NCBI GenBank assembly: GCA_018649885.1
Contig: JABIHA010000092.1
Location: 1-35,601, forward strand
DNA: 35,601 nt
Direction of reading: 5' to 3'
Source of the DNA: Bacteriovoracaceae bacterium
GTDB taxonomy: Bacteria; Bdellovibrionota; Bacteriovoracia; Bacteriovoracales; Bacteriovoracaceae
Below are positions 49 to 34,463 of the stretch, piece by piece. The notes beneath the pieces were generated by a model. That model saw only the letters and a program-made list of their open reading frames with translations. It did not search any database and was not told the origin of the DNA. The stretch's first letter is position 1; each line of letters starts with the position of its first letter. Made by a program: the position numbers and the translations under genes.

Positions 49-135
49 TACAACCTCCTTAATAAGGAAAAGTTTAGCAGAAAGTACCTCTTAGCTTTTT
101 AACTCTTTTGGTCCACTTTGGGCTGACGTTAAACA
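1..135 (-). mobile_element. Left end of an IS3-family-like insertion sequence (runs off the window)
   Basis: Minus strand from 135 reads TGTTTAACGTCAGCCCAAAGTGGACC (TG terminus), then an AAGGAGG RBS (54-60) and a transposase-like start. The TGTTTAA end supplies the premature stop of the upstream gene. Confidence 0.75.
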
Positions 136-1046
136 GCTAACGCTCCATAAAATAGGGGTTCCAGGATGTCATTAAAGAAATTTGAATAAGTGCCTATATC
201 TTTTTTAAAAAGGCGGCGGAGAAAGTTTTTAGGGCCGGTTCCCCAAAAGGCATCCCGTTCTACTCCGAACCAACCTTTTTTTTGCAGAAAATATAAAAAG
301 ACGATCTGGCCCAAGAGTTTTTTGGTGAAATCTACAGTATCCACACCACTGGTTTTAAAATCCTTTTTAATTTTAGGGTTGTTAGCCACCTGCTCGTCCA
401 AGGCTTCTTTGACCTTCAAAAACAAGCCCCGGTACTGCTCAAAAAACTCTTTGGTTACTACTTCTATGCTAAACAGGTCTTCAATCTCAGCAAGAGCGGG
501 ATTTTCTTCGTCATTTTCTAAAAGTGACAATAATTGAAATTGGGCAGTATGGCTATTTTCATTTTCTCCTACTAAAAAGGAATATCTTCGAGAAGGGGTA
601 AACTCCTCTTTGACCTTCGATTTTCCATGTTTATCTTCAACGAATTTATAGTCCATCTTCACGAAGGAGAACCGCCACTCATTTTCAGACGGAGAAACAA
701 ATGCTATAAGGGAGGCATCACGCAAAACACCACTCCGACCTCCATTCAAATACCATGAGATAAAGTTTCTCTGCATGGCTCTTGCACGATCAAGAGATGT
801 TTCTTTTTTAAGCTGTACTATTAATACGTCTAACCCGCTACCTTCACTATCCTCATAGCTCCCGACATATTCCAAGCTTTCTATATGAGGTTTATAGGAA
901 TCTGGCAAATGGCTTCCTTTAAGAACAGTAGAACCCGATTCATCAATTTTATTCAATAAATTCTTTACAAAATAAATAAAGCGATCCTTAGCAAAAGATC
1001 GCTCAAATGTTTCTCGAATTAGTTTTTTCGCAGGTTCTTTATCCAT
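129..1046 (-). pseudogene. Type IIG/Eco57I-like restriction-modification enzyme, N-terminal part, truncated by IS insertion
   Basis: Motifs RRYSFLVGENENSHTA, FSIEVVTKEFF, KKLLGQIVFLYFLQKKGW and ILEPLFY are typical of the region preceding the N6-MTase domain in type IIG enzymes. No DPxxGSG or NPPY motif is reached before the stop at the IS end. Confidence 0.8.
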
Positions 1047-1047
1047 T

Positions 1048-4000: not shown

Positions 4001-4251
4001 AACTTTAGCTCTTGCTGTTTAATAGGCTTGTTATTTTTCACAGAATCTACCGTATGCTTATTGGTTCCAATGCCAATTAAGATTCTTATTTTCTCTGTAT
4101 TCTCTAATGACTTATAAATGGAATAGAACCCGCTTGTATAGAAATAGCCGACAAGAACATCAAAGTCGCTGGTATCCTTTATAAGAACATTAAACCTGTC
4201 CCTAAGGGTCTTATTAGCTTCATTTGTGATAAAGGTAGTATCAGATGTCAT
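1048..4251 (-). CDS. PLD-like (HKD) nuclease domain fused to SNF2-family helicase, R-M associated
   Basis: N-terminal LVGYFY, LHAKLYIM and ITGSSNFT..G...N.E.N (PLD). Walker A DVVGLGKT, DEAH, TATP, EGVNL and QRVGRINR. Its stop lies 1 nt from the start of the R-M gene. Confidence 0.9.
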   Translation of the reverse strand: MTSDTTFITNEANKTLRDRFNVLIKDTSDFDVLVGYFYTSGFYSIYKSLENTEKIRILIGIGTNKHTVDSVKNNKPIKQQELKFSHAETKEKFSDEVKDELEDSEDSEQAEEGVHKFIEWLRSGKLEIKAYPTENLHAKLYIMTFHEDDKDDGRVITGSSNFTRSGLIDNLEFNVELKNKSDYDFALNKFDDLWEDAVDVKDQYINTINDKTWLNDTITPYELYLKFLYEYFKGELGQSDKVFYKYEPINFRKLEYQEQAVLNAKKILEEYGGVFLSDVVGLGKTFMAAMLANQIDGRTLVIAPPVLLDKDNPGSWINVFMDFRIPAEFESLGKLDKLIKRGTEKFHNVIIDEAHRFRSEDNITYEKLAQICRGKRVILVTATPQNNTPSDLMSQIKLFQSSKKSTIPNLPNLDKFFKELAKRLKGLDRQDDHDEYMQAIKENSIEIREKVLKHLMVRRTRNEIETYFGEDLKKQGLKFPDVADPVSVYYQLDDVEDSVFNRTIEIIARDFKYSRYTPMLFYKGDDVDQLEIQSQKNMGRFMKILLVKRLESSFYAFRNSVDRFIASYERFIAELEKGRVYLSKKHAIKIFEFLENDDEERIQKLIDEDKARVFPAKDFEEGLKEGLLSDLEMLREIKLLWRGVNRDPKLMEFIKILQTNEILKKSKIIVFSESKETVEYLAKNLKEKFGDCILAYHGGSSAETRNRVIVNFDAKAREPKNDYRILITSEVLAEGVNLHRSNVVVNYDIPWNPTRIMQRVGRINRVDTEFDTIYSFNFFPTKQADDEIKLKSAAEAKIKAFISLLGSDARLLTEGEDIESFELFDQLISKKTILGEDDEEESQLKYLQVIKDIRDKDPDLFSDIKRLPRKSRTARSFKCDGNKLITYFRKGKVEKFYLSGKDDPEELDFMAIARVLATDPITKRETIGKEFFAFLDKSKDAFTFATTEEAPEISKTKGGKDSGAKILKILKAIKDKRKLTEDQEEYLKKVRVKLEEGDLPKQTMKKVNKELVDELSVTIEPSRLAIKVVGILQKNIPSELLESHVSEISGHSSGVREVILSEYLVGE

Positions 4252-4262
4252 GTGGATATGAG

Positions 4263-4619
4263 TTAGGTGGTTTTAGGACTAATATCCATCCATTTACAAG
4301 GGACAGATATAGTTTCAAGGTGAAATAAATTGTCTTCAACCCAGACGGTCAGACTCTCTTGATTCTTTTCATAGGACGTTATGTAGGCCATGAGTTTCCA
4401 ATTAACAAATGCACAGCCTCTTCCTCTCCCCTTTGCCTCGATTTCAACTGTCTTTTCATTATAGGTAATCGCTAGAACATCACCTTGGAAGTCAAACGTA
4501 GCCTCATTACTGGCATATTTCAACTTTCGCTTCCTTCTCCTCCCATCTTTCCCAATCTTAATAAAGTCGTCCAACACGTCCATTAGTTTTTGAGCATTTA
4601 CTTGGTAACATACATTCAT
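4263..4619 (-). CDS. Hypothetical protein, possibly a single beta-clamp-like domain
   Basis: 118-aa ORF tightly packed between co-oriented genes. Hydrophobic pattern loosely resembles one DnaN domain (inference). Confidence 0.55.
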   Translation of the reverse strand: MNVCYQVNAQKLMDVLDDFIKIGKDGRRRKRKLKYASNEATFDFQGDVLAITYNEKTVEIEAKGRGRGCAFVNWKLMAYITSYEKNQESLTVWVEDNLFHLETISVPCKWMDISPKTT

Positions 4620-4642
4620 GGGAAATATAAATTGATTAACAG

Positions 4643-5590
4643 TTATTCTTGCTCTATGCCTTCTATGATTGGAAGGAGTTTAACCTTATTGACTTCTTCA
4701 AACTCCCTGCTAATTTCTTCTTTAAGTTTTTGTTGAAAATTTCTCATCTCATCTCGCCAAAGATTATTCTGAAACCATTCATAAAGATCACCTAAAAGTG
4801 CCTCAGAAACAACTGACACAACTTCCCAGTCAACCTTCTTGTCGAAACTGTGGATAGTATAAACAAGCCAATTAGGTGATATTCCTCCAACATAGCCAAC
4901 GTTGTCAACGTTGCCACCGTTTCCATAAGGGCTGTGCAGTAACAATACTGGATACCTAAAAGCTTTCTCGAAATCGGCGTAAAGGTGCTGAAAATATTTC
5001 CCCATCATTTGATCTATCAGTATCCCTATCATCAAGAAACCTCTCATTTGCCTGGGATTATCGGAGCCTTTAATTACCCTTTCTGAAGCACATTGGCAAA
5101 ACCCTCTCCCTTCAGAAAAGACAGTATTCATCAGCCTAAATCTACCATCATACTTTACGGGCACTGTCCAGAACCAATCAATGAGCCCCCTGCATGAGGG
5201 CTGGTCCATAACTACACCACTTCTCTCCCCCTCAGCAGTGGAACTATCAACATTCACCCAAGCCCGGCATTTCTCATTTAATTCATAAATAAAGTCCTCG
5301 TCAGACTTTGATATGGCTTCCTTTCCTAGAGCCGTTAACTTCCACAGCCCCCTAAACTTAGTAATAAAACCAGCCTTTACGCATTTACTAGAATAAGAAT
5401 GTACAGACAGCTTCCATTTAGGCTTTCCTGTGATTCGATTGACTACTAATTGATCTTCACTAAGGTTTAGTTTTGGTTCGACAGCAGATAAAATATCTTT
5501 GTGATAATCCTCCCCACCTGCATTATTGATTTCAATTAAAATAGCTTTGAGAATTTTTCCGATTCGCTCTCTTGGAATTCTTGTAGCCAT
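4643..5590 (-). CDS. Mrr N-terminal winged-helix domain fused to an unrecognised C-terminal domain
   Basis: ILKAILIEI..GGE...KDI....LNLSE...G.PKW...KAGFITK.RGLWKLT.LGK matches the Mrr_N pattern. No Mrr_cat D..QxK motif seen downstream. Confidence 0.7.
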   Translation of the reverse strand: MATRIPRERIGKILKAILIEINNAGGEDYHKDILSAVEPKLNLSEDQLVVNRITGKPKWKLSVHSYSSKCVKAGFITKFRGLWKLTALGKEAISKSDEDFIYELNEKCRAWVNVDSSTAEGERSGVVMDQPSCRGLIDWFWTVPVKYDGRFRLMNTVFSEGRGFCQCASERVIKGSDNPRQMRGFLMIGILIDQMMGKYFQHLYADFEKAFRYPVLLLHSPYGNGGNVDNVGYVGGISPNWLVYTIHSFDKKVDWEVVSVVSEALLGDLYEWFQNNLWRDEMRNFQQKLKEEISREFEEVNKVKLLPIIEGIEQE

Positions 5591-5638
5591 TCTAAATCTC
5601 CGTTCAACGTATAAATTTCTGGTTAGAATAGTTCAAGA

Positions 5639-6436
5639 TCAAAAATCTTCTATATTATCTATTAAACCCACCTCATCCACAAACCTATTCCTATTCCCCT
5701 GAACAGCCTCGATCAAATCGTTTCTTTCAATTTCCCAATCATCTGGCGGGTCGCTTAAATTCCATTGACTCAAGATTTCTTTATACTCACCAGGAATTAA
5801 AACATCATACTGACTGGACATATAGAAATAGGCTCTAGCTATATCTCCTCTTATAGCTTCTGTCGGTTCTGCGATCTTACCTTTACGCCCAAGATTCTTT
5901 CTTAGTTCAAAATCACATTGCCCATACACTCTAGGTTCGTCAGGAATATCTCCAAATGGGTGGTTAGACCGATCTCCGTTGACCTCACCAATTGAAGGAA
6001 ACAAGTTATGCATATCAGCTTGCATCATTTTGAATTTATCTGAAATTCTGGAACAGCATTTCCTTCCTTTATAAGTCTTACCATTTCTCTTGGTACATAG
6101 CTTTTTTTGCCAGCATTGCAGGTTCTTTCCGAAAGCATGGGCTGGCATAACGTGCTCCCACTCCAATCTTCGACTTCTCTTGTTAGTTTGCTTTCTGGGA
6201 ACGTATCCACAAGACAAATGGTCTATATCCTTAGCCTTATTAAAGGAACAACCGCAATAGAGGGTTTGAGTTTGACCGGCATTTAAATAAAGCTTCATGA
6301 GCTTTTTTTTAGATTGGGAGAAACTAGTGCTGGTGGAGGGTTGCAGCGTATCAAATGAGCTTGTCTGAAAACTATATGAAATAGTACTCAGGCTCAAAAA
6401 TCCAATCAAAGTGGTTATTTGGACTATGTTTTTCAT
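5639..6436 (-). CDS. endA: Endonuclease I (EndA/Dns family, secreted His-Me nuclease)
   Basis: Signal-peptide-like N-terminus, TLYCGC, EWEHVMPA, DMHNLFPSIGEVNGDRSN, RGDIARAYFYM, QGNRN and conserved Cys pattern. Confidence 0.93.
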   Translation of the reverse strand: MKNIVQITTLIGFLSLSTISYSFQTSSFDTLQPSTSTSFSQSKKKLMKLYLNAGQTQTLYCGCSFNKAKDIDHLSCGYVPRKQTNKRSRRLEWEHVMPAHAFGKNLQCWQKKLCTKRNGKTYKGRKCCSRISDKFKMMQADMHNLFPSIGEVNGDRSNHPFGDIPDEPRVYGQCDFELRKNLGRKGKIAEPTEAIRGDIARAYFYMSSQYDVLIPGEYKEILSQWNLSDPPDDWEIERNDLIEAVQGNRNRFVDEVGLIDNIEDF

Positions 6437-6516
6437 ATATAATAATATTTTCTCTTACACAATAAGCTTACCCTAAATTTTATAACCTAATTATAAGCTT
6501 TCTATCTTTCTAAATC

Positions 6517-9500
6517 ATGCCACCTCTACCTTTAAGTCCCGGAACTCTTGTGCGACTCATAGCAAATCCCGGTAGAACTGGAGTAACCACAGGACGGAGT
6601 CGGGAGAGAGCAGATCGTATTTACTGGCAAGTAATGTTCCCTGATGGCTCTGAATGGGCACTCGAAAGTCAAATAGAGGAAATACCAGATACCGAAGACC
6701 CTATAGACCAATTAGAAACAGGAAGGCTAGGACGAATCATAGATTTACGCAGGAATTTGACCTTTATTAGGTTAAATGGTCAATTAGCAAATCTAATATA
6801 TAGCATGGACACAACCAATACGGACTTTTATCCACATCAATTTAAACCAGTCCTAGATTTTCTAAACTCTCCAAGCAATGGAATTTTAATAGCAGATGAG
6901 GTTGGTCTGGGAAAAACAATTGAAGCTGGCTTAATATGGACAGAACTAAGAAGTAGGTTTGATTTTCGCCGCTTAATGGTTTTGTGCCCAGCCATGCTTA
7001 GAGAAAAATGGCAATTTGAATTAAAAAATAAATTTGGAATTTCTGGAGAGATTTTAGACGCCAAAGAAGCTCTGAAACAATTTAAAGAATCCATAAGTGG
7101 TCAACGAAATGAATTATCTATCATAGCAAGCTTTCAGGGCTTGAGACCTCGAAGAGGATGGAACGAAGATGACTCAGATAATAATGACAATGCATCGAAA
7201 CTAGCTCGATTTATAGATGAGGTGGCATATGAAAATCCTCTATTAGATTTATTAATTATTGATGAAGCCCATTATTTGAGAAATCCTGAAAGTATGACGT
7301 CAAAGTTAGGGCGGCTATTAAGGCAGGTAGCTGAAAATATAACTTTATTATCAGCAACTCCTATTCAACTGAGAAGCAGAGACCTTTATCAACTGCTAAA
7401 CTTGGTTGACCAAAGCACATTCAATGAGCCAACTTCATTTGATGAAATTCTTCAAGCTAACCGACCGTTGATAATGGCCAGAGATATGGTTTTAAGAGGG
7501 TGGGTATCGAATGAGGCTGAAGGAAGGCAACAAATTAGTCAGCAAGATTTATTATCCACCCTTAGAGACGCACAATCCCACTCTCTTTTACAAGATAATC
7601 GACAACTTAAACACTTACTTGAAAATCCTCCTACAGACGATGAGCTAACCAATAATGAATACCGGGCTTATTTAGCCAATAGACTTGAAAACGTAAACTT
7701 ATTAGGTCATGCCGTTACTAGAACTAGAAAAAGGGACGTTGTTTCTTTGCGAGTTCGCAGGGATGTTATTCCAGAGGAAATTCCTCTATCAGAACCAGAG
7801 GAAAAGTTTTATGAAAAGGTAACCAATTTAGTTCGTGAATTTAGCCTCAGTCATGGGGTGCATGAAGGTTTTTTATTAGTTACACCTCAAAGGCAAATGT
7901 CCAGCTGCATGGCCGCCTCTCTAGAGCAGTGGGAAAAGACACGAAAAGAAATTATTTCAGAGAACGCCTATGACGAACAAGCATACGAGGACCTTGGGAT
8001 AATTAAAACTCCATCTAAAACCTTTGGGCCGTTGACAAGTATGCTGATAAACGAAGCTTCCAATATGGGAGATTTGAATGAACTGACAACACATGATAGT
8101 AAATTTAATCGTCTTAGAAATATTTTAAGAGATTATTTAAATAGAAACCCTAATGAAAAGATTGTGCTATTCGCCTACTTCCGCCCAACCCTTCGCTACC
8201 TGAAGAAACGGTTAAATGAGGAAGGAATTGAGTCAATCACCCTCATGGGTGGCGATGCCAATAAAGGAGAAATATTACGAAACTTTCAAGACCCTAGTGG
8301 TCCCAAAGTTCTCCTATCGTCAGAGGTGGCAAGCGAAGGTATTGACCTACAGTTTTCTAAGTTTTTAATTAATTATGACTTGCCTTGGAATCCTATGAAA
8401 GTGGAACAGCGAATAGGACGCATAGACAGGTTAGGTCAAGATTCTCCCAATATAAAAATATGGAATCTGTTTTATCAAAATACGATAGATTCGAGAATAT
8501 ACACAAGACTATATGACCGTCTAAGATTGTTTGAGAATACTTTGGGTGACCTAGAAGAAGTCTTGGGTGATGAGATTCAAAAGCTAACCTCTGATCTTTT
8601 AACTCATCACTTAACATCAGAGCAAGAAATTGAAAGAATAGAACAGTCCGCCCAAGCAATAGCAAACCTAAGAAACCGTGAAGAAGTTCTGGAGGGTGAA
8701 GCTGGAAACTTAATAGCACATGGAGATTACATCCTAAACCAAGTCAAAGCTTCAAGGGAGCTAGAAAGATGCATAACGGGAGAAGATATCTGGGTTTACA
8801 TAAAGGACTTTTTTGATGAAAATTATACAGGTAGCGAATTTATTAGAGTAACAGACGGTGAGTTATTATTTGATGTCAGACTTTCAGAAGAGGCAAAAAT
8901 TAAATTTGAAGAATTTGTTCAATCAAATGGAATGTTGAGCCAAACCAATTTGGCATCGACTCATACGAGAGCAATTCGGTGCAGATTTGCAAACAAGGTT
9001 GCCGGTTTTACTGATAAAACAGTAGAGGTGATTAATCAGTTTCATCCTTTAGTAAGATTTTCGAGTCATAAAATAAAGGAGTTTGGGCCATCCTATTACC
9101 ATAAAACAGTTGGCGTCAAGTTGCCATCATCAGAGCTTCCGGGATTTCCTATAGGTGTATATGTATTTTTTGTAGACCTTTGGTCACTTCAAGGAGTCCG
9201 AAGTATTGAAAGACTTAATTTTGTCGTTAAGCCATATAATCACGGCAACTTTATTTTAGAGGACAAGGCAGAGCAACTAGTGACAACAACAGCAAGGAAG
9301 GGTATAGATTGGATTGGAGCTGAAAATTTCGTTGATATAGATTCAATTATGAGCACTGCTAACGATTGCATATCCAAGTCTGAGGAAATGTACAATAAGT
9401 ACGTTCAAGAAATAGCGGATGAAAATAACGACAGGGCTGACCTTCAAGAAAAATCAATAAAAAACCATTTGGCACGAAGCTTAGATAGCTTGAACAATGT

Positions 9501-9678
9501 ATTGCAAGGACATAGAACAAGGGGTCGGGAAGCTCTAGTCAGAGCTACTGAAGGCAGAATAACTGCTTTAATAAATAGAGTTGACCGACAAATACTGAGA
9601 ATTAATGATGGCCGAGAATTAAAGCATCATAAACTAACTTCCTGCTTAGGTATAATTAGCTTGGAAGACTTTAGCTAA
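6517..9678 (+). CDS. SNF2/RapA-like helicase
   Basis: YPHQ, ADEVGLGKTIEAG, IIDEAH, LSATP, RTRKRDV, SEGIDLQF, NYDLPWNP and EQRIGRIDRLGQ. Confidence 0.92.
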   Translation: MPPLPLSPGTLVRLIANPGRTGVTTGRSRERADRIYWQVMFPDGSEWALESQIEEIPDTEDPIDQLETGRLGRIIDLRRNLTFIRLNGQLANLIYSMDTTNTDFYPHQFKPVLDFLNSPSNGILIADEVGLGKTIEAGLIWTELRSRFDFRRLMVLCPAMLREKWQFELKNKFGISGEILDAKEALKQFKESISGQRNELSIIASFQGLRPRRGWNEDDSDNNDNASKLARFIDEVAYENPLLDLLIIDEAHYLRNPESMTSKLGRLLRQVAENITLLSATPIQLRSRDLYQLLNLVDQSTFNEPTSFDEILQANRPLIMARDMVLRGWVSNEAEGRQQISQQDLLSTLRDAQSHSLLQDNRQLKHLLENPPTDDELTNNEYRAYLANRLENVNLLGHAVTRTRKRDVVSLRVRRDVIPEEIPLSEPEEKFYEKVTNLVREFSLSHGVHEGFLLVTPQRQMSSCMAASLEQWEKTRKEIISENAYDEQAYEDLGIIKTPSKTFGPLTSMLINEASNMGDLNELTTHDSKFNRLRNILRDYLNRNPNEKIVLFAYFRPTLRYLKKRLNEEGIESITLMGGDANKGEILRNFQDPSGPKVLLSSEVASEGIDLQFSKFLINYDLPWNPMKVEQRIGRIDRLGQDSPNIKIWNLFYQNTIDSRIYTRLYDRLRLFENTLGDLEEVLGDEIQKLTSDLLTHHLTSEQEIERIEQSAQAIANLRNREEVLEGEAGNLIAHGDYILNQVKASRELERCITGEDIWVYIKDFFDENYTGSEFIRVTDGELLFDVRLSEEAKIKFEEFVQSNGMLSQTNLASTHTRAIRCRFANKVAGFTDKTVEVINQFHPLVRFSSHKIKEFGPSYYHKTVGVKLPSSELPGFPIGVYVFFVDLWSLQGVRSIERLNFVVKPYNHGNFILEDKAEQLVTTTARKGIDWIGAENFVDIDSIMSTANDCISKSEEMYNKYVQEIADENNDRADLQEKSIKNHLARSLDSLNNVLQGHRTRGREALVRATEGRITALINRVDRQILRINDGRELKHHKLTSCLGIISLEDFS

Positions 9679-17329: not shown

Positions 17330-18454
17330 TTAATTTGATTCTTTAGATATTTGCGCAATATATGTAACCCAAGAATCGGTCCTTAATAAAAGAGCTTGAA
17401 GTTGTTTTTCTGTCAATTGTGGTTCACGGTCATGAAGACGATTAAAAAGTTTAATTAGCTTAACCAGTGAAAGTGTGTCCTGCTCAACAAACTGAGATAA
17501 CGGCTCATTATTCAGGTCTCGGCAAATATATAAAACACGAGCCTTTCTTGTAGGCTTCCCTTCATGTATAAGTTCTCCGCTATCGTTAGGAATCCAATTC
17601 ATTACTGAGGAGTCAGGAGCAAGATTCCATAATAAATGGTTCCACATTTCCCTTAAGGACGTAAGGATATGTCTTGTTCGATCGGGATTATTGCCTTTAA
17701 AAGCCTCATAAGCTCCCTTATGCATAAGGGCCAAAGAAGGGTCTATTTCATGAAGTAATTGAACACAAAAAGAGGTCTCCTCTTTCATTTCGATTATTAA
17801 TTCTTCAGAAATATCTTCTTCCTCAGGCTCAACATGGTCTATCAAAGTTTTTAGAACTAACCCGCCTGTGAAAACTTCACGGGTTGCCCCAGGCATAATA
17901 AAGCTTGGTAGCTGAGTTAACTCAGAAAGCGTTTGAAGGGATTCTGAAAATTTATCATAAGTAAAAACTACCCCTTGAGTAATTTTTTCAAGATCGCCAA
18001 CAATAGAAGCATTAAGTTTATATGTTTGTGAGAGCGAATTAAAATTCAAACTCTTCATGATTTGGTTAGAATATTCCAGTTCCTTTGAAATTTGATCGAA
18101 AGACGATTGAAATATCCCCTGAATCTTTGGAAGTTCATATTGAAGCGGCCTGATCTTTTCAATCCAAGTTTTATGACCACCTTGAATTTCCTCAAATAAA
18201 CTAGTCGGGATCGTAACCTTGTTCATCATTAGTTTTAAATGATCATTTGCATGAGTGATGTTATTAAGCACAAGGTCGGACTTGGATAGCTCTAAGGCTT
18301 GATTAATTTGGGTCAGGCTATCTTTATAGGGCTGTAATGATCGGCTAATCTCGTCAAAAGCACTTTGATAGGGTTTTGTTAAATGAGCTATTCTCTCAAA
18401 TTCCTTTTGTATTTTTAGGAAATTTGAAAGATTTAAATTTTCGTAATTCTTCAT
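17330..18454 (-). CDS. Helical N-terminus + C-terminal predicted pPIWI-associating nuclease (HEPN-like) domain
   Basis: C-terminal GAYEAF...NPDRTRHILTSLRE...LAPD...W...GKPTRKARVLYI and a late NRLH. N-terminal ~200 aa is amphipathic/coiled-coil-like. Confidence 0.65.
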   Translation of the reverse strand: MKNYENLNLSNFLKIQKEFERIAHLTKPYQSAFDEISRSLQPYKDSLTQINQALELSKSDLVLNNITHANDHLKLMMNKVTIPTSLFEEIQGGHKTWIEKIRPLQYELPKIQGIFQSSFDQISKELEYSNQIMKSLNFNSLSQTYKLNASIVGDLEKITQGVVFTYDKFSESLQTLSELTQLPSFIMPGATREVFTGGLVLKTLIDHVEPEEEDISEELIIEMKEETSFCVQLLHEIDPSLALMHKGAYEAFKGNNPDRTRHILTSLREMWNHLLWNLAPDSSVMNWIPNDSGELIHEGKPTRKARVLYICRDLNNEPLSQFVEQDTLSLVKLIKLFNRLHDREPQLTEKQLQALLLRTDSWVTYIAQISKESN

Positions 18455-18482
18455 AGAAAAAATCTTGTTTAAGGGATAATTA

Positions 18483-19880
18483 TTAACGCTTTTTCTTCTT
18501 TAAATTAACCCAAGCTGGCTTCTTTTTTGGATTTCTTCGAGGTATTGGAGGACCAAAAATAACTACTGGAATTCTCCGCCAACCTATTACGCTTCCACTT
18601 CGCTTTACAATGCAATCCATGTAATGAGTTCCATTGTAACGAGAGGTTTCCTCAGCTTTAATATCGTTGCCCGCTCTATGGCCCAAGTCATTAGAATATT
18701 CGGCTTCTTCCCCTTCATTGCGTACTACCCATTCGATTCTTGCATCGCCTGGTATTTCATTTTGATTAGTAATATTAAAACTTATTTTGCATTCTCTTGG
18801 GATAGGACCAATCGAATTCATTTTACTATAGGTCCGATGGGAGTTGTTTTCTGGAACAGCATCCACCCTGACTTCGGGAATAAATGTTCTAATTGGTAGC
18901 TGATTACTAGCCGTTGATTCCTTTAGTAATTCATCTACGCAAATTGGAAAAAAATGCCCAAAAATGCTTGTCCATTTATCAATCGCCGTAAGAAGATCGC
19001 TGGTAGAAAGAGCCTCTTTGGCTCTACTCCTAAGATCCTCAAAGTTGTTTATCAACACACCAAATTCCTGCTCACTTAAGTGGTCAATTAAAGATTCCGT
19101 ATTGTTTACTGGATTATAAACAGTAGGATTTGCTTTTAATCGTTTAAGCAAGCTTTCAACTACCTTCAATAAGGCATCGTCATCAGCCACAATGGCTTCA
19201 CTAGGTATGTTCGGAATAGCTTCAGCTATTAATACTGTTAAAAGAATTGAGGAAGGTCCACCGGTAGCCCCATTATATTTCTGCCCACTCCAGCACTTGA
19301 AATATTGAATCAGGCGACGTACCTGACTCCGAGTAGTATCGTCAAACTTTTCTTTAAACCACACATAAATAGCCTTTGGATCACTATCTTCCCATTGGTT
19401 TTTTTCTGTTGCTAACATCCTATTATCATTCATTTCGTTTAAGTGATATGCAGGAGCATCAATATGGAAATCTCCCTCAAACATTATCCTTGAGCATTTT
19501 TCTTTAGGAGGTATCAGCACTTCCTTAACACCTTCCCCCGAATATTCACTAAGACTATTCTGGACGAAATCTTTTAATTGCTTAGGTTCCCAGCTTCCCT
19601 GCTCCGGAAGCCCGTTCCATATAAAATAGACACCTAAATCAATATCAAACTCTTTTCCATAAGTTGGGCGGATCTGGGTTCCAAACTTATAAGACCCCTG
19701 AATCCAAGTTCTAATGCGACAACCAGTCCTTATATCAAGATCAGATACAAGATATTCTGCTAAGTCATTCCATCTCTCTTGCTGTTCGCTTTGTTGATCT
19801 TGGCTTGGTGTAATTCGACGATGTAAAGTTTGTTTTTCCATATCAGTTGAATTGAAAAACAACAATTTAGCAATACCCAT
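18483..19880 (-). CDS. CBASS cGAS/DncV-like nucleotidyltransferase (CD-NTase) with C-terminal AGS-C-like domain
   Basis: QGSYKFGTQIRP, EFDIDLG, FHIDAPAY, SDPKA and YFKCW. C-terminal WVVRNEGEEA...DLGH...E.SRYNGTHYMDC (AGS-C pattern). Directly downstream of a patatin gene. Confidence 0.92.
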   Translation of the reverse strand: MGIAKLLFFNSTDMEKQTLHRRITPSQDQQSEQQERWNDLAEYLVSDLDIRTGCRIRTWIQGSYKFGTQIRPTYGKEFDIDLGVYFIWNGLPEQGSWEPKQLKDFVQNSLSEYSGEGVKEVLIPPKEKCSRIMFEGDFHIDAPAYHLNEMNDNRMLATEKNQWEDSDPKAIYVWFKEKFDDTTRSQVRRLIQYFKCWSGQKYNGATGGPSSILLTVLIAEAIPNIPSEAIVADDDALLKVVESLLKRLKANPTVYNPVNNTESLIDHLSEQEFGVLINNFEDLRSRAKEALSTSDLLTAIDKWTSIFGHFFPICVDELLKESTASNQLPIRTFIPEVRVDAVPENNSHRTYSKMNSIGPIPRECKISFNITNQNEIPGDARIEWVVRNEGEEAEYSNDLGHRAGNDIKAEETSRYNGTHYMDCIVKRSGSVIGWRRIPVVIFGPPIPRRNPKKKPAWVNLKKKKR

Positions 19881-19910
19881 TTCTTTCCTCTTGTAGTTTG
19901 TATATTGATT

Positions 19911-20885
19911 CTAAATATTGAAGAATCGAGGCTGAGGTGCTCTGTGTGACAGAATTTTAATCAGTCTTGGGTCGTTTACGTTGCCTTGAATAGAACCTGA
20001 CGCAACTCCTCTAATAGTCTTTTGAGCATTTTTTGTAGCTATATCCAACCCAATATCACGCTCCTGATCTTTGGAAAGGATTTCATCTATGCGCATGTAC
20101 CTATCCCCTAATTGGTGGCCAAGGATGTAAGTTGCATCCATTTGTTGTGCAGATATCATTGTTTGTGCAAGACGCCGTCCCCAGCCAAATACTCCAAGGT
20201 TTAAACGACCTACATGCGAGAATGAAAAATTAGTTGTAGTTGTACCTATACTTAGCATCTGGATGTCTTTTTTTGGGACTTCAAAAAAGTGCTCCGCCTC
20301 ATGTAGTGCCAAAATATCAGGCGAATTTGCATATAGCCCCCCATCTGCAAATAATTCATCTCCTATTTCAGAAATCGGAAAATATGTTGGAGCGGCTGAA
20401 GTAGCCAGTGCGACATCAACAATTTTGAGATAGTGGTCACGTACAAAGGTAGAGTGATGTGGTGTCTTAAAGATTTGTGGCTTCCCCTTTGTGAGATTCA
20501 CGGTGGGAACCATCACAGGGTGCTTTAAATCTCCAATAATGGTCTGCTCACCTACAATTTCAATTATTGTCTTTCGTAGTTCTTGATTTTCATATTTCGA
20601 TTTTTGAATTGATGAACAGAATTCTAGGAGTTCCCTTATTTTGCCAGTTGATGCAGGGCGATCAGAAAATATTTTTGAACCGTTTTTTTCAAAAGCACTC
20701 TTAATATCAATAGCGGGTCTTTCAGCGGCTAAACCCAAAGCAATTATTCCACCAATTGATGTTCCTGCCATGAGATCAAAGCAAGATGCAATTGGACGGC
20801 CTAAATTCTTTTCAAGTTCTGCCAAGATTGAAACTGTATACAGACCTAGAAAACCACCACCGCTTAAGCTAAGAATATTGAACAT
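19911..20885 (-). CDS. capV: CBASS patatin-like phospholipase effector (CapV-like)
   Basis: LSLSGGGFLG, GTSIG (catalytic Ser), FKTPHH, ATSAAPTYFP and DGG (catalytic Asp). 30 nt upstream of the CD-NTase. Confidence 0.92.
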   Translation of the reverse strand: MFNILSLSGGGFLGLYTVSILAELEKNLGRPIASCFDLMAGTSIGGIIALGLAAERPAIDIKSAFEKNGSKIFSDRPASTGKIRELLEFCSSIQKSKYENQELRKTIIEIVGEQTIIGDLKHPVMVPTVNLTKGKPQIFKTPHHSTFVRDHYLKIVDVALATSAAPTYFPISEIGDELFADGGLYANSPDILALHEAEHFFEVPKKDIQMLSIGTTTTNFSFSHVGRLNLGVFGWGRRLAQTMISAQQMDATYILGHQLGDRYMRIDEILSKDQERDIGLDIATKNAQKTIRGVASGSIQGNVNDPRLIKILSHRAPQPRFFNI

Positions 20886-29610: not shown

Positions 29611-30588
29611 ATGGAAAGCAATAAGAACATTCTCCCCAAAAACAAATTAAACTTTCTTGCCACAAAAATAGTTGATTTTTGTTTCAATGAAATTGGAGAC
29701 AAGGGATTTAGAGTTTTATATTCCGAGGCTCTATCCAGATGGACTTTAAAGGGCAAAAAAATTGAGACTGGCCTTTCAACTGAAGAATTCAAGATACTAA
29801 ATAAAAAAACTCTTCTAAAGATATACCTTAACCTTTCAGACGACTTGAAAAGTTTCTGCCAAGAGTTAACCTTAGTAACTAGGCAGTGGAACGGTCAGAT
29901 ATCTGTCAAAGACCTAGGAAAGCACACTTTGACCGGCACTGAGGACATAAATTTAGTTTTATACCTAATTAGCGAAAATAAAAAGTTTTTATCAAGCAAT
30001 ATTAAAATTAAAGGTCGATACATATATTTTTTTGCAGACGATAACTTAAAGAAAGTATCAGAGACCCCTAAAAGGGAAACAGTAATTAGCGGAGCCAAGG
30101 GAGAAAATTATGGATTGATAGATTTAGGAAAGGGATATGATGCCATTGTAGATAAGGAGGATTTGCAAAATCTTTTGCAATATAACTGGACTATTTCTAC
30201 GATGAACATTCAGGGAAACACCTATAAAGTGGCATTCACATCCATGGATGGAAAGTCAGTTTATATGCACCGATTCTTACTAAAACCTGAGGGAAAGCAG
30301 GTTGTCGCACATAAGGATCGTGATGGTTTGAATAATAGAAAGAAAAATCTATTCTTAGCCTCAAGGAAACAGACGCATCAAAGACAAAGACTCTCTAAAG
30401 GAGGATCCTCTAAGTATAAAGGAGTATCTTTCCATAAAAAGTCTAAACGGTGGCAAGCTTATATTACCGTGAATGGGAAAAAGTTGTATTTGGGGTATTA
30501 TAAATCTCAGGATGATGCGGCTATTGCATATAATAATGCGGCGCAAGAACATTTTGGTGAATTTGTGAACTTAAATAAATTAGATTAG
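29611..30588 (+). CDS. Unknown N-terminal domain + HNH-like + AP2 DNA-binding domain
   Basis: YMHRFLL and VAHKDRDGLNNRKKNL (HNH-like). SSKYKGVSF...WQAYI....KLYLGYY...DAAIAYNNAA..HFGEF (AP2). Confidence 0.85.
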   Translation: MESNKNILPKNKLNFLATKIVDFCFNEIGDKGFRVLYSEALSRWTLKGKKIETGLSTEEFKILNKKTLLKIYLNLSDDLKSFCQELTLVTRQWNGQISVKDLGKHTLTGTEDINLVLYLISENKKFLSSNIKIKGRYIYFFADDNLKKVSETPKRETVISGAKGENYGLIDLGKGYDAIVDKEDLQNLLQYNWTISTMNIQGNTYKVAFTSMDGKSVYMHRFLLKPEGKQVVAHKDRDGLNNRKKNLFLASRKQTHQRQRLSKGGSSKYKGVSFHKKSKRWQAYITVNGKKLYLGYYKSQDDAAIAYNNAAQEHFGEFVNLNKLD

Positions 30589-30702
30589 CTACCGACTGTG
30601 ATCCTAATTTAAACTCACCAATGCAAACAAGTCCAGCATATCAACTCCTCTGTATTTACTCAGCCTAGGTTATCCTTTCCTCTTACCAAAATAGCGTTAT
30701 AT

Positions 30703-30711
30703 TGCTATAAT
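30703..30711 (+). promoter_or_regulatory. Extended -10 promoter element
   Basis: TGCTATAAT (TGnTATAAT), about 40 nt upstream of the GHKL ATPase start. Confidence 0.5.
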
Positions 30712-30752
30712 TTACCTTCATTCAACATATTATATTTTTAGGTTTTATATAG

Positions 30753-32633
30753 ATGCCTGAGCCAAAATGGGAATTTCGAGTGATGGTTAAGGGGGAAATG
30801 AATTCTGACCCCATAGAAAGCGAGTTTTTTTCTACTGAACACTTGGACAGTGTTGCAGATGCACTAGTTCGTGAATGCATCCAGAATTCTCTTGATGCTG
30901 GGTTGCCAGATCAGACCGTTCGGGTGGCTTTTCGTTTATTTACGGAAAATTCAAATAAAAATGGGGGTATGGCTCAATATCTAAAGGGTCTTCAGCCACA
31001 TTTAACTGCTGAGCAAAATGGCTTAATTAAAACCCACAATCCTGATGATCCAGAAAACTTTTTGGTAATAGAAGATTATGGGACACGGGGCCTGGAAGGC
31101 GATCCAACTCAAGATGATGATTTTCAGCCAACAAGCACAGACATCAAGAATGATTTTTTCTATTTTTGGCGTAACATAGGTAGATCAAAAAAAGGCGCTA
31201 GTGATCGTGGTCGGTGGGGTTTGGGCAAAACTGTGTTCCAAGCAACATCAAAAATTAATACTTACTTTGGGCTTACGGTCAGAAAAAGCGATGGGAAATC
31301 TATGCTGTTGGGCCAATCAGTTTTAAAAACTCATTTAATAAATGATAATAAACACTCTCCTTATGGATGGTACGGAGCTTTTGATGAAAATTTTGCCTTA
31401 CCCATTGAAGATCAACCATACCTTGAGAAGTTTTCTGCAAATTTTGGTTTAAAAAGACAAGGAAAAGCAGGGCTATCAATTATAATTCCTTATCCTGACC
31501 CTTCTGTAGAGATCAAAACACTTCTATCCTCGGCCTTACTTCATTATTTTTTCCCAATTTTGTCCAAAAACCTAGTGGTCGAGTTACATAAAGATAGGAA
31601 GCTCCTCATCATTGACGATCAAAAAATTGACCAACTACTCAAGTATGTTGACTTCTCAAAGTCTAGAATGACAAAAGAAGCTTTTCAGGATTTATTCAGT
31701 CTTACTCGCTGGATACATTTACTATCCCCAAATGATCTGATTAGAATTAATTCTCCATCCGCACTGATTGCTCCTAAATGGGATGAAAACCTAATTGAAA
31801 AAGAAGCCCTAGCGAAACTTCGAGAACAATTTGATAAAAAAGAAAGAATTGCCCTTCGGGTGCCCTTAACAATTAAACCAAAAGATAAAAATCCAGAAAA
31901 AACTTATTTTGATATTTTTATAGAACGAGACGACCGCTTGGACCGTGCAGAAGATCATTTTGTTCGAGAAGGAATCACCATTGCTGGTGTAAGTTCCTTA
32001 AAGCAAAAAGGAGTCCGGGTGGTAATTTCAATAAATGACCAGGCTTTGTCAGCCCTTTTGGGTGATTCTGAAAATCCTGCACACACAGAATGGCAAGAGC
32101 GTTCTCCAAAATTTAAAAATCAGTATATCCATGGAGCATCATGCCTCAGGTTCGTCAAAAATAGCCCCAGAGAAATCATAAAAATCTTGAGCAAACCCTC
32201 TATTGGAATAGATAAGAAGCTCTTAGAAGAATTCTTTTCGGTAACACCACTTACAGATAAGGGAACCAATAAGTCATCTGGGCAAAAGAATGATTTGCCG
32301 GAGGGATTGATTGGCTCAACCAAGGAATTCCATCTGTTCCGTAAGCAAGGGGGATTTATATTACGCAAAAATCCAAAAGCTACACATATGCCTAATGGTA
32401 TCCATGTCACGGTTGCCTATGAAATTCTGGGACGCAACCCTTTCACAAAATACAGCCCGTTCGATTTTGAAATGGATAAAGTGCCTATCAAGATAAATAG
32501 CAAAGGGGTTCAAATAAATGCAATTAAAGAAAATCAGCTAATTGCTAAATTAGACAGCCATGACTTTCGGTTTGAAATCACAGGCTTTGATTTAAATCGA
32601 GATTTAAGGGTAAAAGTCATAGGAGTCGGGTAA
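30753..32633 (+). CDS. GHKL (HATPase_c, Hsp90/MutL/MORC-like) ATPase
   Basis: N-box LVRECIQNSLDA, G1 IEDYGTRGL, lid K..SDRGRWGLGK and late G.SIIIP. Long uncharacterised C-terminal region with ENPAH.EW. Confidence 0.8.
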   Translation: MPEPKWEFRVMVKGEMNSDPIESEFFSTEHLDSVADALVRECIQNSLDAGLPDQTVRVAFRLFTENSNKNGGMAQYLKGLQPHLTAEQNGLIKTHNPDDPENFLVIEDYGTRGLEGDPTQDDDFQPTSTDIKNDFFYFWRNIGRSKKGASDRGRWGLGKTVFQATSKINTYFGLTVRKSDGKSMLLGQSVLKTHLINDNKHSPYGWYGAFDENFALPIEDQPYLEKFSANFGLKRQGKAGLSIIIPYPDPSVEIKTLLSSALLHYFFPILSKNLVVELHKDRKLLIIDDQKIDQLLKYVDFSKSRMTKEAFQDLFSLTRWIHLLSPNDLIRINSPSALIAPKWDENLIEKEALAKLREQFDKKERIALRVPLTIKPKDKNPEKTYFDIFIERDDRLDRAEDHFVREGITIAGVSSLKQKGVRVVISINDQALSALLGDSENPAHTEWQERSPKFKNQYIHGASCLRFVKNSPREIIKILSKPSIGIDKKLLEEFFSVTPLTDKGTNKSSGQKNDLPEGLIGSTKEFHLFRKQGGFILRKNPKATHMPNGIHVTVAYEILGRNPFTKYSPFDFEMDKVPIKINSKGVQINAIKENQLIAKLDSHDFRFEITGFDLNRDLRVKVIGVG

Positions 32634-32639
32634 ATTTCG

Positions 32640-33419
32640 ATGATTAGAAAACTCAATTTTACAGGTCGAAAAAAAATCCCTCGAAATCGCACTATGGTTA
32701 CTTTGTTGAACACTGACAAGTATCCTCATTCTTTTGACATTCAAATAAATCTCTCTGATTTTGGTCTACCTAAAGAAGCACTGGTTTATGTTGAAGCCTA
32801 TAAAAGAACCTCATACATGCGATTTGATTATGGAAAGGTAGGCACCCTTGAGATTCCCTCAAACAGAGACCTTATAGGTATTGAAGCTGGGGCAATTCCC
32901 CTATTTCGAGTGAAAATCGTAGACAAAAGTGGTAAGCAGGGCCGAATCATAGCAATTGCCGATAAAATTCATCCTAAGGGAGTTGAAGATGTTAATAATG
33001 AAAAAATAAGTTTGTTGCATGTTGAGTTTGCAGAAGACCTAGGAGATCAGGTTTGGAGATTGGATTTAACAGGAGACTGGCCTGTTGTGCAAGTCAACAA
33101 TCAGTTGAGTTCGATAAAGGAAATTGCAAGAAATGATGCGGCATTTGTAGCATTAGTATACCCAGAAATTGTACGACAAATATTAAATGATATTATCGAA
33201 TCAGACCAATTAGACCCTGAAATTGATGAAGATGACTGGCCTAGCTTGTGGGTTAATTTTGTAAGTTCTCTACCAGGTGTGGGTTCCCCTCCCACAGGCA
33301 GAAATCCAAATATTAAGAATGACCAAACAGATTGGGTTGAGAATGCAGTGCGTGGGTTTTGTGACAAATGGCATCTTTTGGACCAATTTCAAAAACTCCA
33401 CGCTGAGGAGGAGAATTAA
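32640..33419 (+). CDS. Hypothetical protein, second gene of the GHKL operon
   Basis: 6 nt after the ATPase stop. Beta-rich N-half, helical C-half (ALVYPEIVRQIL, W..LW..F). Confidence 0.75.
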   Translation: MIRKLNFTGRKKIPRNRTMVTLLNTDKYPHSFDIQINLSDFGLPKEALVYVEAYKRTSYMRFDYGKVGTLEIPSNRDLIGIEAGAIPLFRVKIVDKSGKQGRIIAIADKIHPKGVEDVNNEKISLLHVEFAEDLGDQVWRLDLTGDWPVVQVNNQLSSIKEIARNDAAFVALVYPEIVRQILNDIIESDQLDPEIDEDDWPSLWVNFVSSLPGVGSPPTGRNPNIKNDQTDWVENAVRGFCDKWHLLDQFQKLHAEEEN

Positions 33420-34147
33420 TGATTTGTGTTTCTAGGTTGAATTCAAGAGGATTAGAGTATTTCAAGAAATACCTAAATAATCTTCGTGAGAATCCTGACT
33501 TAAAACCACCGTTTGAGATTTTGGAAAATCCTGATTACTCTGAAAACTTTCAAGACAAGGCTCATGTCGAGCAAATGGATTTTCAATATCGAACCCATAT
33601 GGTCAAATATTTATCTAAGGCTTTAGAGAACCTGAATACTTCGTTAGAATTAGAAAATCAAGGGTTGTGGAGCTGGTTATCGCTTTTTTACTTTAATCAG
33701 GTTTGTCCTGAAGACCTAGATAGAAAAAGGACACCTGGCATGGATTACCGTCACATACCAAATGTTGGATATCGTTATAAACACAGACATTTACTCGCAG
33801 GACCTTTCCAGGTTTTTAAAATGTATGAGGAAAGGGCTCGACTTCTTTTGAATGGTGTAGTTCATACTGAAAATAAGATTCACCATGAATTAGGCACACG
33901 TCAAAACTTTATAACCAACCCAAGCATTGTAGAAGTAGCAGATGCTCTCTATTTTGATAAAAGTAAAAATAAACCTAAGGCTGGAACACAATCTAAAACT
34001 AGAGGCGGCTCCCTGTTTCGACTTATCACTGTCATACAACAACTGGAGTTGACTTACGATTTATACAGTATGAACTCTGAAGAAATCCTGCAGTTGTTAC
34101 CCGAGGAATTTGATAACTGGAAGGATCTACAACCTGTAAGTAGCTAA
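33419..34147 (+). CDS. Hypothetical protein, third gene of the GHKL operon
   Basis: TAATG overlap with the preceding gene. Motifs GLWSWLSLFYFNQVCP, YKHRHLLAGP and QLELTYDLYSM...LLPEEF..W. Confidence 0.75.
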   Translation: MICVSRLNSRGLEYFKKYLNNLRENPDLKPPFEILENPDYSENFQDKAHVEQMDFQYRTHMVKYLSKALENLNTSLELENQGLWSWLSLFYFNQVCPEDLDRKRTPGMDYRHIPNVGYRYKHRHLLAGPFQVFKMYEERARLLLNGVVHTENKIHHELGTRQNFITNPSIVEVADALYFDKSKNKPKAGTQSKTRGGSLFRLITVIQQLELTYDLYSMNSEEILQLLPEEFDNWKDLQPVSS

Positions 34148-34163
34148 ATATTTGGAGGGAAAA

Positions 34164-34463
34164 ATGACCCCGGATAAGGATAAGAAATTAGAAGAAGAAC
34201 TAGAACGGCTAGAGGAAATCAATGGAAGCGATTCTGAGGATGAAATGAAAAGCGAATTAGAGCGTCTGCGGGCAGAGAATGAAGCATTAAAGAAAAGCAA
34301 ATCAAAAGAGATAACTTTCAAGGTTGGTCAAAAAGGAGGCATGTCGTTATATGGTCTTGGTCGATTCCCAGTAACCTTATACAAAAGTCAATGGCTATTG
34401 CTTTTGGATGCCGTAGAGGAAATTAGGAATTTTATAAAAATTCATGACGAAGAGTTGAAGTAA
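34164..34463 (+). CDS. Small coiled-coil protein with KVxxKGGxSxYGLGRFPVTLY motif
   Basis: GGAGG RBS at 34154, ATG at 34164. ELERLRAENEALK coiled coil followed by a conserved-looking beta-hairpin/helix motif. Confidence 0.7.
   Translation: MTPDKDKKLEEELERLEEINGSDSEDEMKSELERLRAENEALKKSKSKEITFKVGQKGGMSLYGLGRFPVTLYKSQWLLLLDAVEEIRNFIKIHDEELK

Follow-up and report, generated by a model that had tools for sequence, protein, structure and literature searches.

A conserved three-gene GHKL ATPase cassette with a large methylase-free branch, a candidate anti-phage defence system

What does a tight operon of a GHKL (MORC/MutL-like) ATPase gene and two companion genes do for its host when no methylase gene stands beside it? 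The question is raised by a locus near one end of a contig of 35,601 bases (JABIHA010000092.1; contig C70 of assembly G000, GCA_018649885.1, a Bacteriovoracaceae bacterium); this entire contig, which stops 1,454 bases after the third gene, is the window of the present analysis. A preliminary description made from the sequence had taken the locus for a stand-alone defence system of three or possibly four components, namely an ATPase clamp, an adaptor, and a DNA-recognition or effector subunit, and the sizes, spacing and overlap that it gave for the open reading frames (ORFs) were all borne out:

30753-32633, forward strand: gene A, 626 amino acids, GHKL (MORC/MutL-like) ATPase, by its motifs of paraMORC2 type
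32640-33419, forward strand: gene B, 259 amino acids, 6-nt gap from A, predicted adaptor
33419-34147, forward strand: gene C, 242 amino acids, its start overlapping the end of B by 1 nt (TAATG), candidate effector
34164-34463, forward strand: gene D, 99 amino acids, ATG start, beginning 16 nt past C

We conclude that A, B and C together are probably an anti-phage defence of some kind. Our tentative picture, held with clearly less assurance, is of a clamp-adaptor-effector complex that has no methylase of its own and would be triggered by foreign modified DNA. New here is a large methylase-free branch of an unnamed cassette whose known kin are paraMORC2 and, distantly, PDC-M33/DUF6339. A restriction role has been predicted for prokaryotic MORC/paraMORC cassettes since 2008, many of them being without a recognisable nuclease, and few GHL ATPases have so far been shown to act against phages, as stated in the Tiamat preprint; the methylase-free branch leaves a 3.4-kb unit of three genes, from which any activity must come.

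The cassette was traced with a profile of C, for which the best 80 of 386 metagenome matches and the best 80 of 131 genome matches were fetched; together with L001 and the window they make up a redundant set of 162 loci. B precedes C in 149 of the 154 loci with room for B, and A is present in order in 120 of the 126 testable loci, which establishes the three genes as a conserved unit. The motifs singled out earlier (ECIQNSLDA, DYGTRG, GRWGLGK and YKHRHLL) are all found in the translations. The N-box of A (E41xxQNxxDA49, 30873-30899) is followed by a DxG motif at residues 108-110 and by GRWGLGK at residues 153-159, and among 89 full-length relatives of A the N-box is kept in 87, the DxG-type motif in 84 and GxxGxGK in 88. 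An ExxxH motif (E440-N-P-A-H444, 32070-32084) occurs in 86 of these 89, is invariant in 41 aligned sequences and, judged from its position, is expected to fall within the S5-domain region. An ExxxH in the C-terminal part of the S5 domain is given as the mark of paraMORC2 by Iyer, Abhiman and Aravind (2008, PMC2292703), and A, on the strength of this motif and the GHKL motifs, is classed as a paraMORC2-type ATPase; the MORC-specific GhXXhpXXRh motif was found in 0 of the 89. Beyond a linker of low conservation (about residues 498-525) A has a conserved C-terminal domain (about 525-626), in which the alignment holds no conserved E-D-ExK pattern and for which Pfam and PADLOC gave no Shedu match. 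Sequence searches of the PDB with A returned nothing useful, and its ESM Atlas model matched only unnamed clusters.

Does the cassette work with a methylase? Across the 162 loci the only frequent extra neighbour is a C5 methylase (Dcm), often with Vsr, and these methylases come from several subfamilies. A tree of B plus C was built from the 148 loci in which coverage of the two genes was good, reduced to 125 non-redundant rows. It puts the window into one clade of 85 rows, with a FastTree support of 1.0 and an SH-aLRT of 99.4 in IQ-TREE (68 rows, that is, the window and all rows with status), and a tree of A, B and C gives the same clade. Within 5 kb of the trio, Dcm and Vsr are both absent from all 35 clade loci that have 3 kb on both sides, while 25 of 32 testable loci outside the clade have one or both (23 with Dcm, two with Vsr only, seven with neither, and a further eight rows too short), Dcm-bearing rows being counted at any flank length, which favours the outside figure. 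Neither gene was seen in the 50 shorter clade rows; in L197 a C5 methylase lies about 6.5 kb away. The seven methylase-free rows suggest that the link to a methylase is optional outside the clade too. Loss of Dcm in the ancestor of the clade is the simplest account, given that Dcm-linked rows surround the clade and that the haloarchaeal relatives described below also have Dcm; the root of the tree was not tested, and the loss may be one event.

The host genomes tell the same story. Among the 33 host genomes of the clade, PF00145 has no match in 22 and Vsr is missing from 25, while MutL was recovered in 31; MutL served as a completeness control, and its presence also rules out that A replaces it in these hosts. 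Most of them are incomplete metagenome-assembled genomes, and one (G073) is a single-chromosome assembly without a C5 methylase match; from the recovery of MutL and from G073 the absence of the methylase appears largely real. The Dcm subfamily that is the main partner elsewhere has no full-length member in the 33 genomes and one partial member (G088). In the window itself no methylase lies near the trio, although one further downstream is possible, the contig ending where it does. The stand-alone status claimed for the locus thus holds for its clade. Taken as a type IV system, that is, one without a cognate methylase, the clade fits as regards C5 methylases, other classes having been checked among near neighbours only.

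It might still be argued that the cassette is ordinary methylation-protected restriction whose methylase is unlinked or of another class, such as N4-methylcytosine (m4C), N6-methyladenine (m6A) or type I. Iyer et al. (2008, PMC2292703) allow for unlinked partners in restriction-modification (R-M), the only methylases among the scanned clade neighbours are type I HsdM that adjoin the trio in two loci (L102 and L118), two C5 methylases lie on other contigs of G000, the window ends 1.45 kb after C, and m4C and m6A methylases were looked for among near neighbours only. We nevertheless hold this explanation to be quite unlikely, since the main partner subfamily is missing at full length from all 33 genomes, two thirds of these hosts, G073 included, show no C5 methylase match at all, and a mobile set of this kind would presumably be toxic on arrival, yet the clade spans several phyla.

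Nor does the methylase-free branch look decayed. Compared with L082, A shows a nonsynonymous divergence (dN) of 0.165 and a synonymous divergence (dS) of 1.34, and B shows 0.173 and 1.43, so that dN/dS is about 0.12 for both; in most other pairs dS has reached saturation, as have the synonymous sites of C in the comparison with L082. A and B are under purifying selection, which largely refutes the idea that these loci are non-working remnants of a Dcm-linked system. Some loci are indeed split or miss a gene (L096, L105, L108, L112, L133 and L100), but as each ATPase motif is retained by 84-88 of 89 full-length A sequences and the clade has 85 non-redundant rows, the remnant explanation is hardly credible.

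Can the cassette then be placed under an existing name? The earlier statement that it matches no named system stands in that PADLOC would not call the trio, and fails in that the trio has kin in paraMORC2 and PDC-M33. It resembles paraMORC2, as described in PMC2292703, in the GHKL motifs and ExxxH of A, in sister branches beside Dcm/Vsr and in its patchy spread, but paraMORC2 is described with helicase and restriction endonuclease (RE)-fold nuclease partners, neither of which is conserved here, where the fixed partners are B and C. The range given for paraMORC2 is also mainly cyanobacterial and Gram-positive, and its R-M-type operon setting, found at 25 of 32 sister loci, is found at 0 of 35 loci in the window's clade, which has no linked methylase. 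The main text of PMC2292703 does not describe B and C.

The second relative is PDC-M33, a phage defence candidate of PADLOC (Payne et al., 2024, bioRxiv 10.1101/2024.01.29.577857). A matches the model PDC-M33A (77 bits, E 2.3e-22; A residues 25-314 on model positions 25-299 of 627), whereas the window's B and C match no PDC-M33 or DUF6339 model and gave no PADLOC match at E<=0.1, nor did seven other C relatives and three other B relatives. Payne et al. (2024) report 145 untested candidates embedded in BREX, DISARM and type I R-M loci; PDC-M33 is not named in the main text of that preprint. An indirect link comes from three haloarchaeal plasmids found with A, each of which carries two trios of a GHKL gene, a hypothetical gene and a DUF6339 gene, the trios facing apart:

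L204, 7101-18540: haloarchaeal trio pair, annotated Dcm between the trios
L205, 4908-18672: haloarchaeal trio pair, annotated Dcm between the trios
L162, 1-13540: haloarchaeal trio pair, with proteins that match PDC-M33A and PDC-M33C

These trios lie near helicase, PLD or DUF1998 genes, and their GHKL protein carries EPPxH. In a 3 x 3 hhalign comparison each family scored best with the haloarchaeal gene at the same position (A, E 1.9e-20; B, 0.0074; C, 0.00066), and the hhalign probabilities of 5% for the B link and 27% for the C link are weak if taken alone. The profile matches agree with gene order and size, and the trio is therefore likely to be a distant branch of a family that includes PDC-M33, the gene order of which we infer from the haloarchaeal loci matching M33A and M33C. 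Mza/MORC-Z1 systems are another class, in which a Z1 helicase, an RE-fold nuclease, AIPR and a methylase are linked; the neighbours of the 162 loci show no conserved cluster of this make-up, and PADLOC gave no Mza match.

A functional precedent is VcSduA, a GHKL-fused Shedu of paraMORC3 type, which defends alone and needs ATP hydrolysis according to PMC12137116. It is like the trio in its GHKL ATPase, in defence without a methylase and in the DNA clamping and effector control proposed for it, and differs in being a single chain with a PD-(D/E)xK (DUF4263) nuclease, whereas the trio has three chains and no such nuclease was detected in them. DUF3427 enzymes (the McaZI group and SauUSI) offer a second comparison. 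PMC6765204 describes DUF3427 as a modified-cytosine recognition domain that is normally paired with a catalytic domain, in enzymes whose genes stand in defence islands, either by themselves or next to C5 methylases. A similar domain is near or fused to distant relatives of C (P0327, P0321 and L142); the McaZI group and SauUSI carry PD-(D/E)XK or PLD nucleases, while the window's C is without a DUF3427-like domain. The trio and its methylase-free branch were not found described in the literature searched, most subscription papers being beyond reach; PMC8011034, as far as its available text goes, concerns a different GHKL family.

If the ATPase has a precedent, what of the third gene? C is mostly helical, with a fold model of predicted local distance difference test score (pLDDT) 93.5 and predicted template-modelling score (pTM) 0.88, and its family counts 1,973 clusters at 50% identity. 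No Foldseek match at E<=0.001 was obtained, the best Z was 3.7 among 48,161 chains, and ESM Atlas gave no usable match; for C as for B, such negatives in fold searches neither prove the fold new nor rule out a nuclease. Pfam, NCBIfam and PADLOC show no methylase, helicase or nuclease family in A to D, apart from the partial match of A to PDC-M33A, Pfam and NCBIfam assign none of the four to a named family, and searches of PDB sequences with the trio proteins were empty or at chance level. Near-invariant residues of C are R123-H124 (33785-33790), Y178, R201, Q208, T212, D214 and E230; in the YKHRHLL stretch only R123 (95%) and H124 (99%) are conserved among 146 relatives. R123-H124, Y178, R201, Q208 and E230, kept in 95-100% of these relatives, are candidates for chemistry or DNA binding. 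T212-x-D214 is located in the predicted interface with B and is probably a docking motif, while R123/H124, R201 and Q208 lie outside the modelled B contacts.

C as a direct member of DUF6339 was rejected, as no match above the cut-off was found in five genomes or in single proteins and only two precomputed labels point that way; its profile makes C a probable remote relative of DUF6339/PDC-M33C. Two of 150 listed C representatives (P0327 and P0321) are fused to a DUF3427-like domain, that of P0327 being 51% identical to a DUF3427-like protein (E 3.9e-5, under the Pfam cut-off). At L142 (6674-11956) a Dcm, a 131-amino-acid DUF3427-like ORF, an HNH_2 nuclease, C and later a Vsr were observed, with A and B missing. 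Other fusions of C end in a zinc ribbon after a long linker (P0203 and P0278) or have extra N- or C-terminal domains without a family (P0202 and P0326), for which a B3-like identity, suspected by eye from their motifs, was not confirmed.

B would hold the two other proteins together. Its fold model (pLDDT 91.3, pTM 0.84) predicts an N-terminal Ig/FN3-like beta-sandwich (about residues 8-116) and a helical C-terminal part; the protein is acidic (isoelectric point 5.1), its best structural match (Z 7.9, root-mean-square deviation 3.2, 93 aligned residues) is to the common arrangement of a beta-sandwich, and comparison ruled out that B and C are paralogues. A three-chain model of A255-626, C1-236 and B, built from custom alignments, scored 0.66 against 0.24 for the best of three controls. 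Solved complexes attained the score mark in 116 of 157 cases and mismatched pairs in 2 of 215, counts that are only a rough guide for a three-chain job. Contact agreement between runs was at least 72%, and the pLDDT of B as partner was at least 78. The modelled contacts join A617-621 to B2-5 and C211-214 to B101-103, and B is thus predicted to be an adaptor that bridges the C-terminal domain of A to C. In this respect the model supports the layout of clamp, adaptor and third subunit that the preliminary description had guessed.

Is the spread of the cassette that of a defence system? With centre genomes included, it occurs in 7 of 92 Nitrospinota genomes, in 4 of 401 and 11 of 301 genomes of two other phyla, and in 6 of 23 genomes of one family; this occurrence is patchy and defence-like. 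The closest trios are those of Nitrospinota genomes (among the best 80 of 131 genome matches), and the 92 genomes of that phylum do not include G000. Contig C70 is a tetranucleotide outlier in bin G000 (rank 77 of 80), being either a genomic island or mis-binned, and for this reason a count of 1 in 36 same-family genomes was set aside. The neighbours were assessed with 187 non-redundant ORFs (at most three per side, within 4 kb) from 52 clade loci, 175 of which were scanned, and with 114 control ORFs taken from 20 stretches chosen arbitrarily in the same host genomes. At E<=1e-20 PADLOC matched 31 of 175 neighbour proteins and 10 of 114 control proteins, and after housekeeping look-alikes (sigma-54 activators, ABC, RecD/UvrD and similar) had been removed by hand the counts were 22 of 175 against 2 of 114, for which Fisher tests overstate the difference, the loci being kin. 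Both the spread and the neighbours are accordingly of the defence type. Clade copies directly adjoin type I, type III and PLD-SNF2 genes in L018, L019, L021, L102, L106 and L118. A pattern scan with C for viral carriage gave none; one whole A-B-C trio lies on IMG/VR contig L167 (259-3745), the sole match in the viral collection, and there is one partial phage match besides.

Much of this would be expected equally of a defence that takes no notice of DNA modification, in which A would detect infection through DNA ends, an anti-restriction protein or replication intermediates. Once activated by A, C would either cut the invader, in the manner of the methylase-free VcSduA, or shut the cell down as a second line behind neighbouring R-M systems. 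The evidence on the unit, its distribution and its neighbours is common to this explanation and to ours; the type I, type III and PLD-SNF2 genes beside several clade copies and the precedent of VcSduA (PMC12137116) favour it, and the several methylase subfamilies at sister loci suggest a loose coupling. It leaves unexplained, however, the cytosine methylase at 25 of 32 sister loci and in the haloarchaeal relatives as well as the DUF3427-like fusions of C, and we consider it possible, if somewhat doubtful.

The same counts bear on a role in DNA repair, in which a MutL-like clamp would first have assisted Dcm/Vsr in very-short-patch T:G repair and would in this clade handle deaminated or damaged bases, with C as a reader or nicking subunit. 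Outside the clade the commonest neighbours of the trio are Dcm and Vsr, MutL partners Vsr in Escherichia coli (PMC2292703), many clade copies lie among housekeeping genes, and conservation within the clade is high, under purifying selection. A repair accessory would nonetheless be out of place in hosts of which 25 of 33 lack Vsr, 22 of 33 lack a C5 methylase and 31 of 33 keep MutL, and it fits poorly with the patchy occurrence (7 of 92) and with defence neighbours enriched over matched control regions, which makes repair an unlikely function.

How could a methylase-free complex of this kind recognise and attack foreign DNA? In the clamp-adaptor-effector picture, A would clamp DNA upon ATP binding through an ATP-gated closure of its dimer, by analogy with other GHKL proteins and with VcSduA, for which ATP-driven dimer closure, DNA clamping and nuclease control are described (PMC2292703; PMC12137116). 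B would bridge A to C, giving an (ABC)2 clamp with B carrying C, as the model of the assembly of the A C-terminal domain, B and C predicts. C may then attack the DNA as the effector subunit, a role suggested by polar residues that C conserves away from the modelled interface and by the two DUF3427-like fusions. The trigger is likely a feature that foreign DNA has and not one that it lacks, there being no methylase to mark self, and could be a base modification such as a modified cytosine; the effector role of C and this trigger are the weakest points of the scheme. In its most specific form, on which we would place only slight reliance, C would be a DNA-attacking enzyme of new fold, with an active site of Arg-His plus Arg/Gln, that is loaded via B by the MORC-like clamp onto modified phage DNA. 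If true, this would amount to a widespread new class of ATP-driven modification-dependent restriction, and the methylase-free branch would show how a methylase-linked MORC cassette turned into an autonomous immune system. If C were given a function, a new effector or DNA-binding fold would have a name, and DUF6339 and the candidate PDC-M33 would probably be explained too.

Several findings weigh against this picture. No nuclease motif or known nuclease fold was found in A, B or C, and no modified-base reader domain was recognised in them, the fold searches having covered C and, in B, chiefly the beta-sandwich half. D214 and T212 of C, which had once looked catalytic, fall in the predicted interface with B; few C proteins carry a DUF3427-like fusion, and those that do are distant relatives; and replacing A lowers the complex score to 0.24, from which it follows that the A-B contact carries most of the score and the B-C contact has little support of its own. 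Most sister loci stand beside Dcm, so that simple targeting of 5-methylcytosine is unlikely there unless its context or the modification differs. C5 methylases are carried elsewhere in 11 of the 33 clade hosts, including G000 with its two on other contigs, and the loci are kin, so that the contrast between the clade and its sisters may reflect a single loss event. As to the surroundings, a clear defence neighbour is present in only 16 of 50 clade loci with flanks, the closest Nitrospinota copies lie among housekeeping genes, and in a Desulfobacterales-type group (L014, L023, L025, L026, L036, L068, L093, L094 and L098) the position of the trio is fixed, behind a TPR gene and a gene of the NUDIX type (NADH pyrophosphatase-like).

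Does the operon extend beyond the trio? The possible fourth gene was rejected as a component, since none of the 136 loci that continue for 350 bases or more past C has D there. It stands after C only in the close relative L003 and in L002, whose DNA is identical. Its product combines an acidic coiled coil with a small conserved domain, belongs to no family and is independent of the trio, and a homologue (52% over 50 amino acids) lies on an unrelated plasmid, of Acidisarcina; the same query did not find D in 20 host genomes, in a search without a positive control. In seven loci that lie at the margin of the window's clade or beyond it (L129, L132, L135, L139, L151, L155 and L195) a conserved protein of about 200-250 amino acids without a Pfam match is encoded just upstream of A, possibly a regulator or a fourth component of that sub-branch.

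Upstream of A in the window the following features are found:

29611-30588, forward strand: ORF with HNH_3 and AP2 domains, homing-endonuclease-like, directly upstream of A, its long N-terminal part without a family
30683-30711, forward strand: possible sigma-70-type promoter, TTACCA, 17 nt, TATAAT with TG extension, weak

The promoter-like TGnTATAAT is present as had been described, TGCTATAAT at 30703-30711 being the top-scoring such site of the region (10/12, extended TG). It is weak evidence, however, because such sites are no commoner than chance would give (8 in the sequence, 11.2 +/- 3.9 in shuffled versions) and three of four close relatives checked lack the exact site upstream of A. 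The genes immediately upstream encode the HNH-AP2 protein, a MORN-repeat protein and a metallo-beta-lactamase-fold protein, and the HNH-AP2 ORF is not a conserved neighbour of the relatives' trios. Pieces of A, B, C, D and the upstream genes occur in contigs of four RNA runs (two studies), at low depth and from libraries that may hold DNA, and in the absence of a silent control these pieces do not demonstrate expression. At the contig end (35494-35601) RNA-run contigs are deeper and have differing loose ends, which suggests a repeated element at the contig break.

The window also carries other defence genes (CBASS, helicases, part of a type IIG enzyme, integrases and PD-(D/E)XK genes), all at least 6 kb from the trio:

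1048-4251, reverse strand: PLD-SNF2 helicase
6517-9678: divergent DrmD-like helicase (931 bits), the remaining DISARM genes not seen
18483-20885, reverse strand: CBASS pair, with a patatin-like phospholipase effector (19911-20885) and a DncV-like cyclase with an AGS-C domain (18483-19880)

After the CBASS cyclase comes a 374-amino-acid protein with a pPIWI-associating nuclease domain, and two tyrosine integrases flank this region (17330-20885, reverse strand). The PLD-SNF2 helicase is followed by a 305-amino-acid ORF, with its stop at 129, whose match to a type IIG enzyme is confined to positions 1-303 of 1148, and the region 129-9678 further holds an Mrr_N protein and an endonuclease I.

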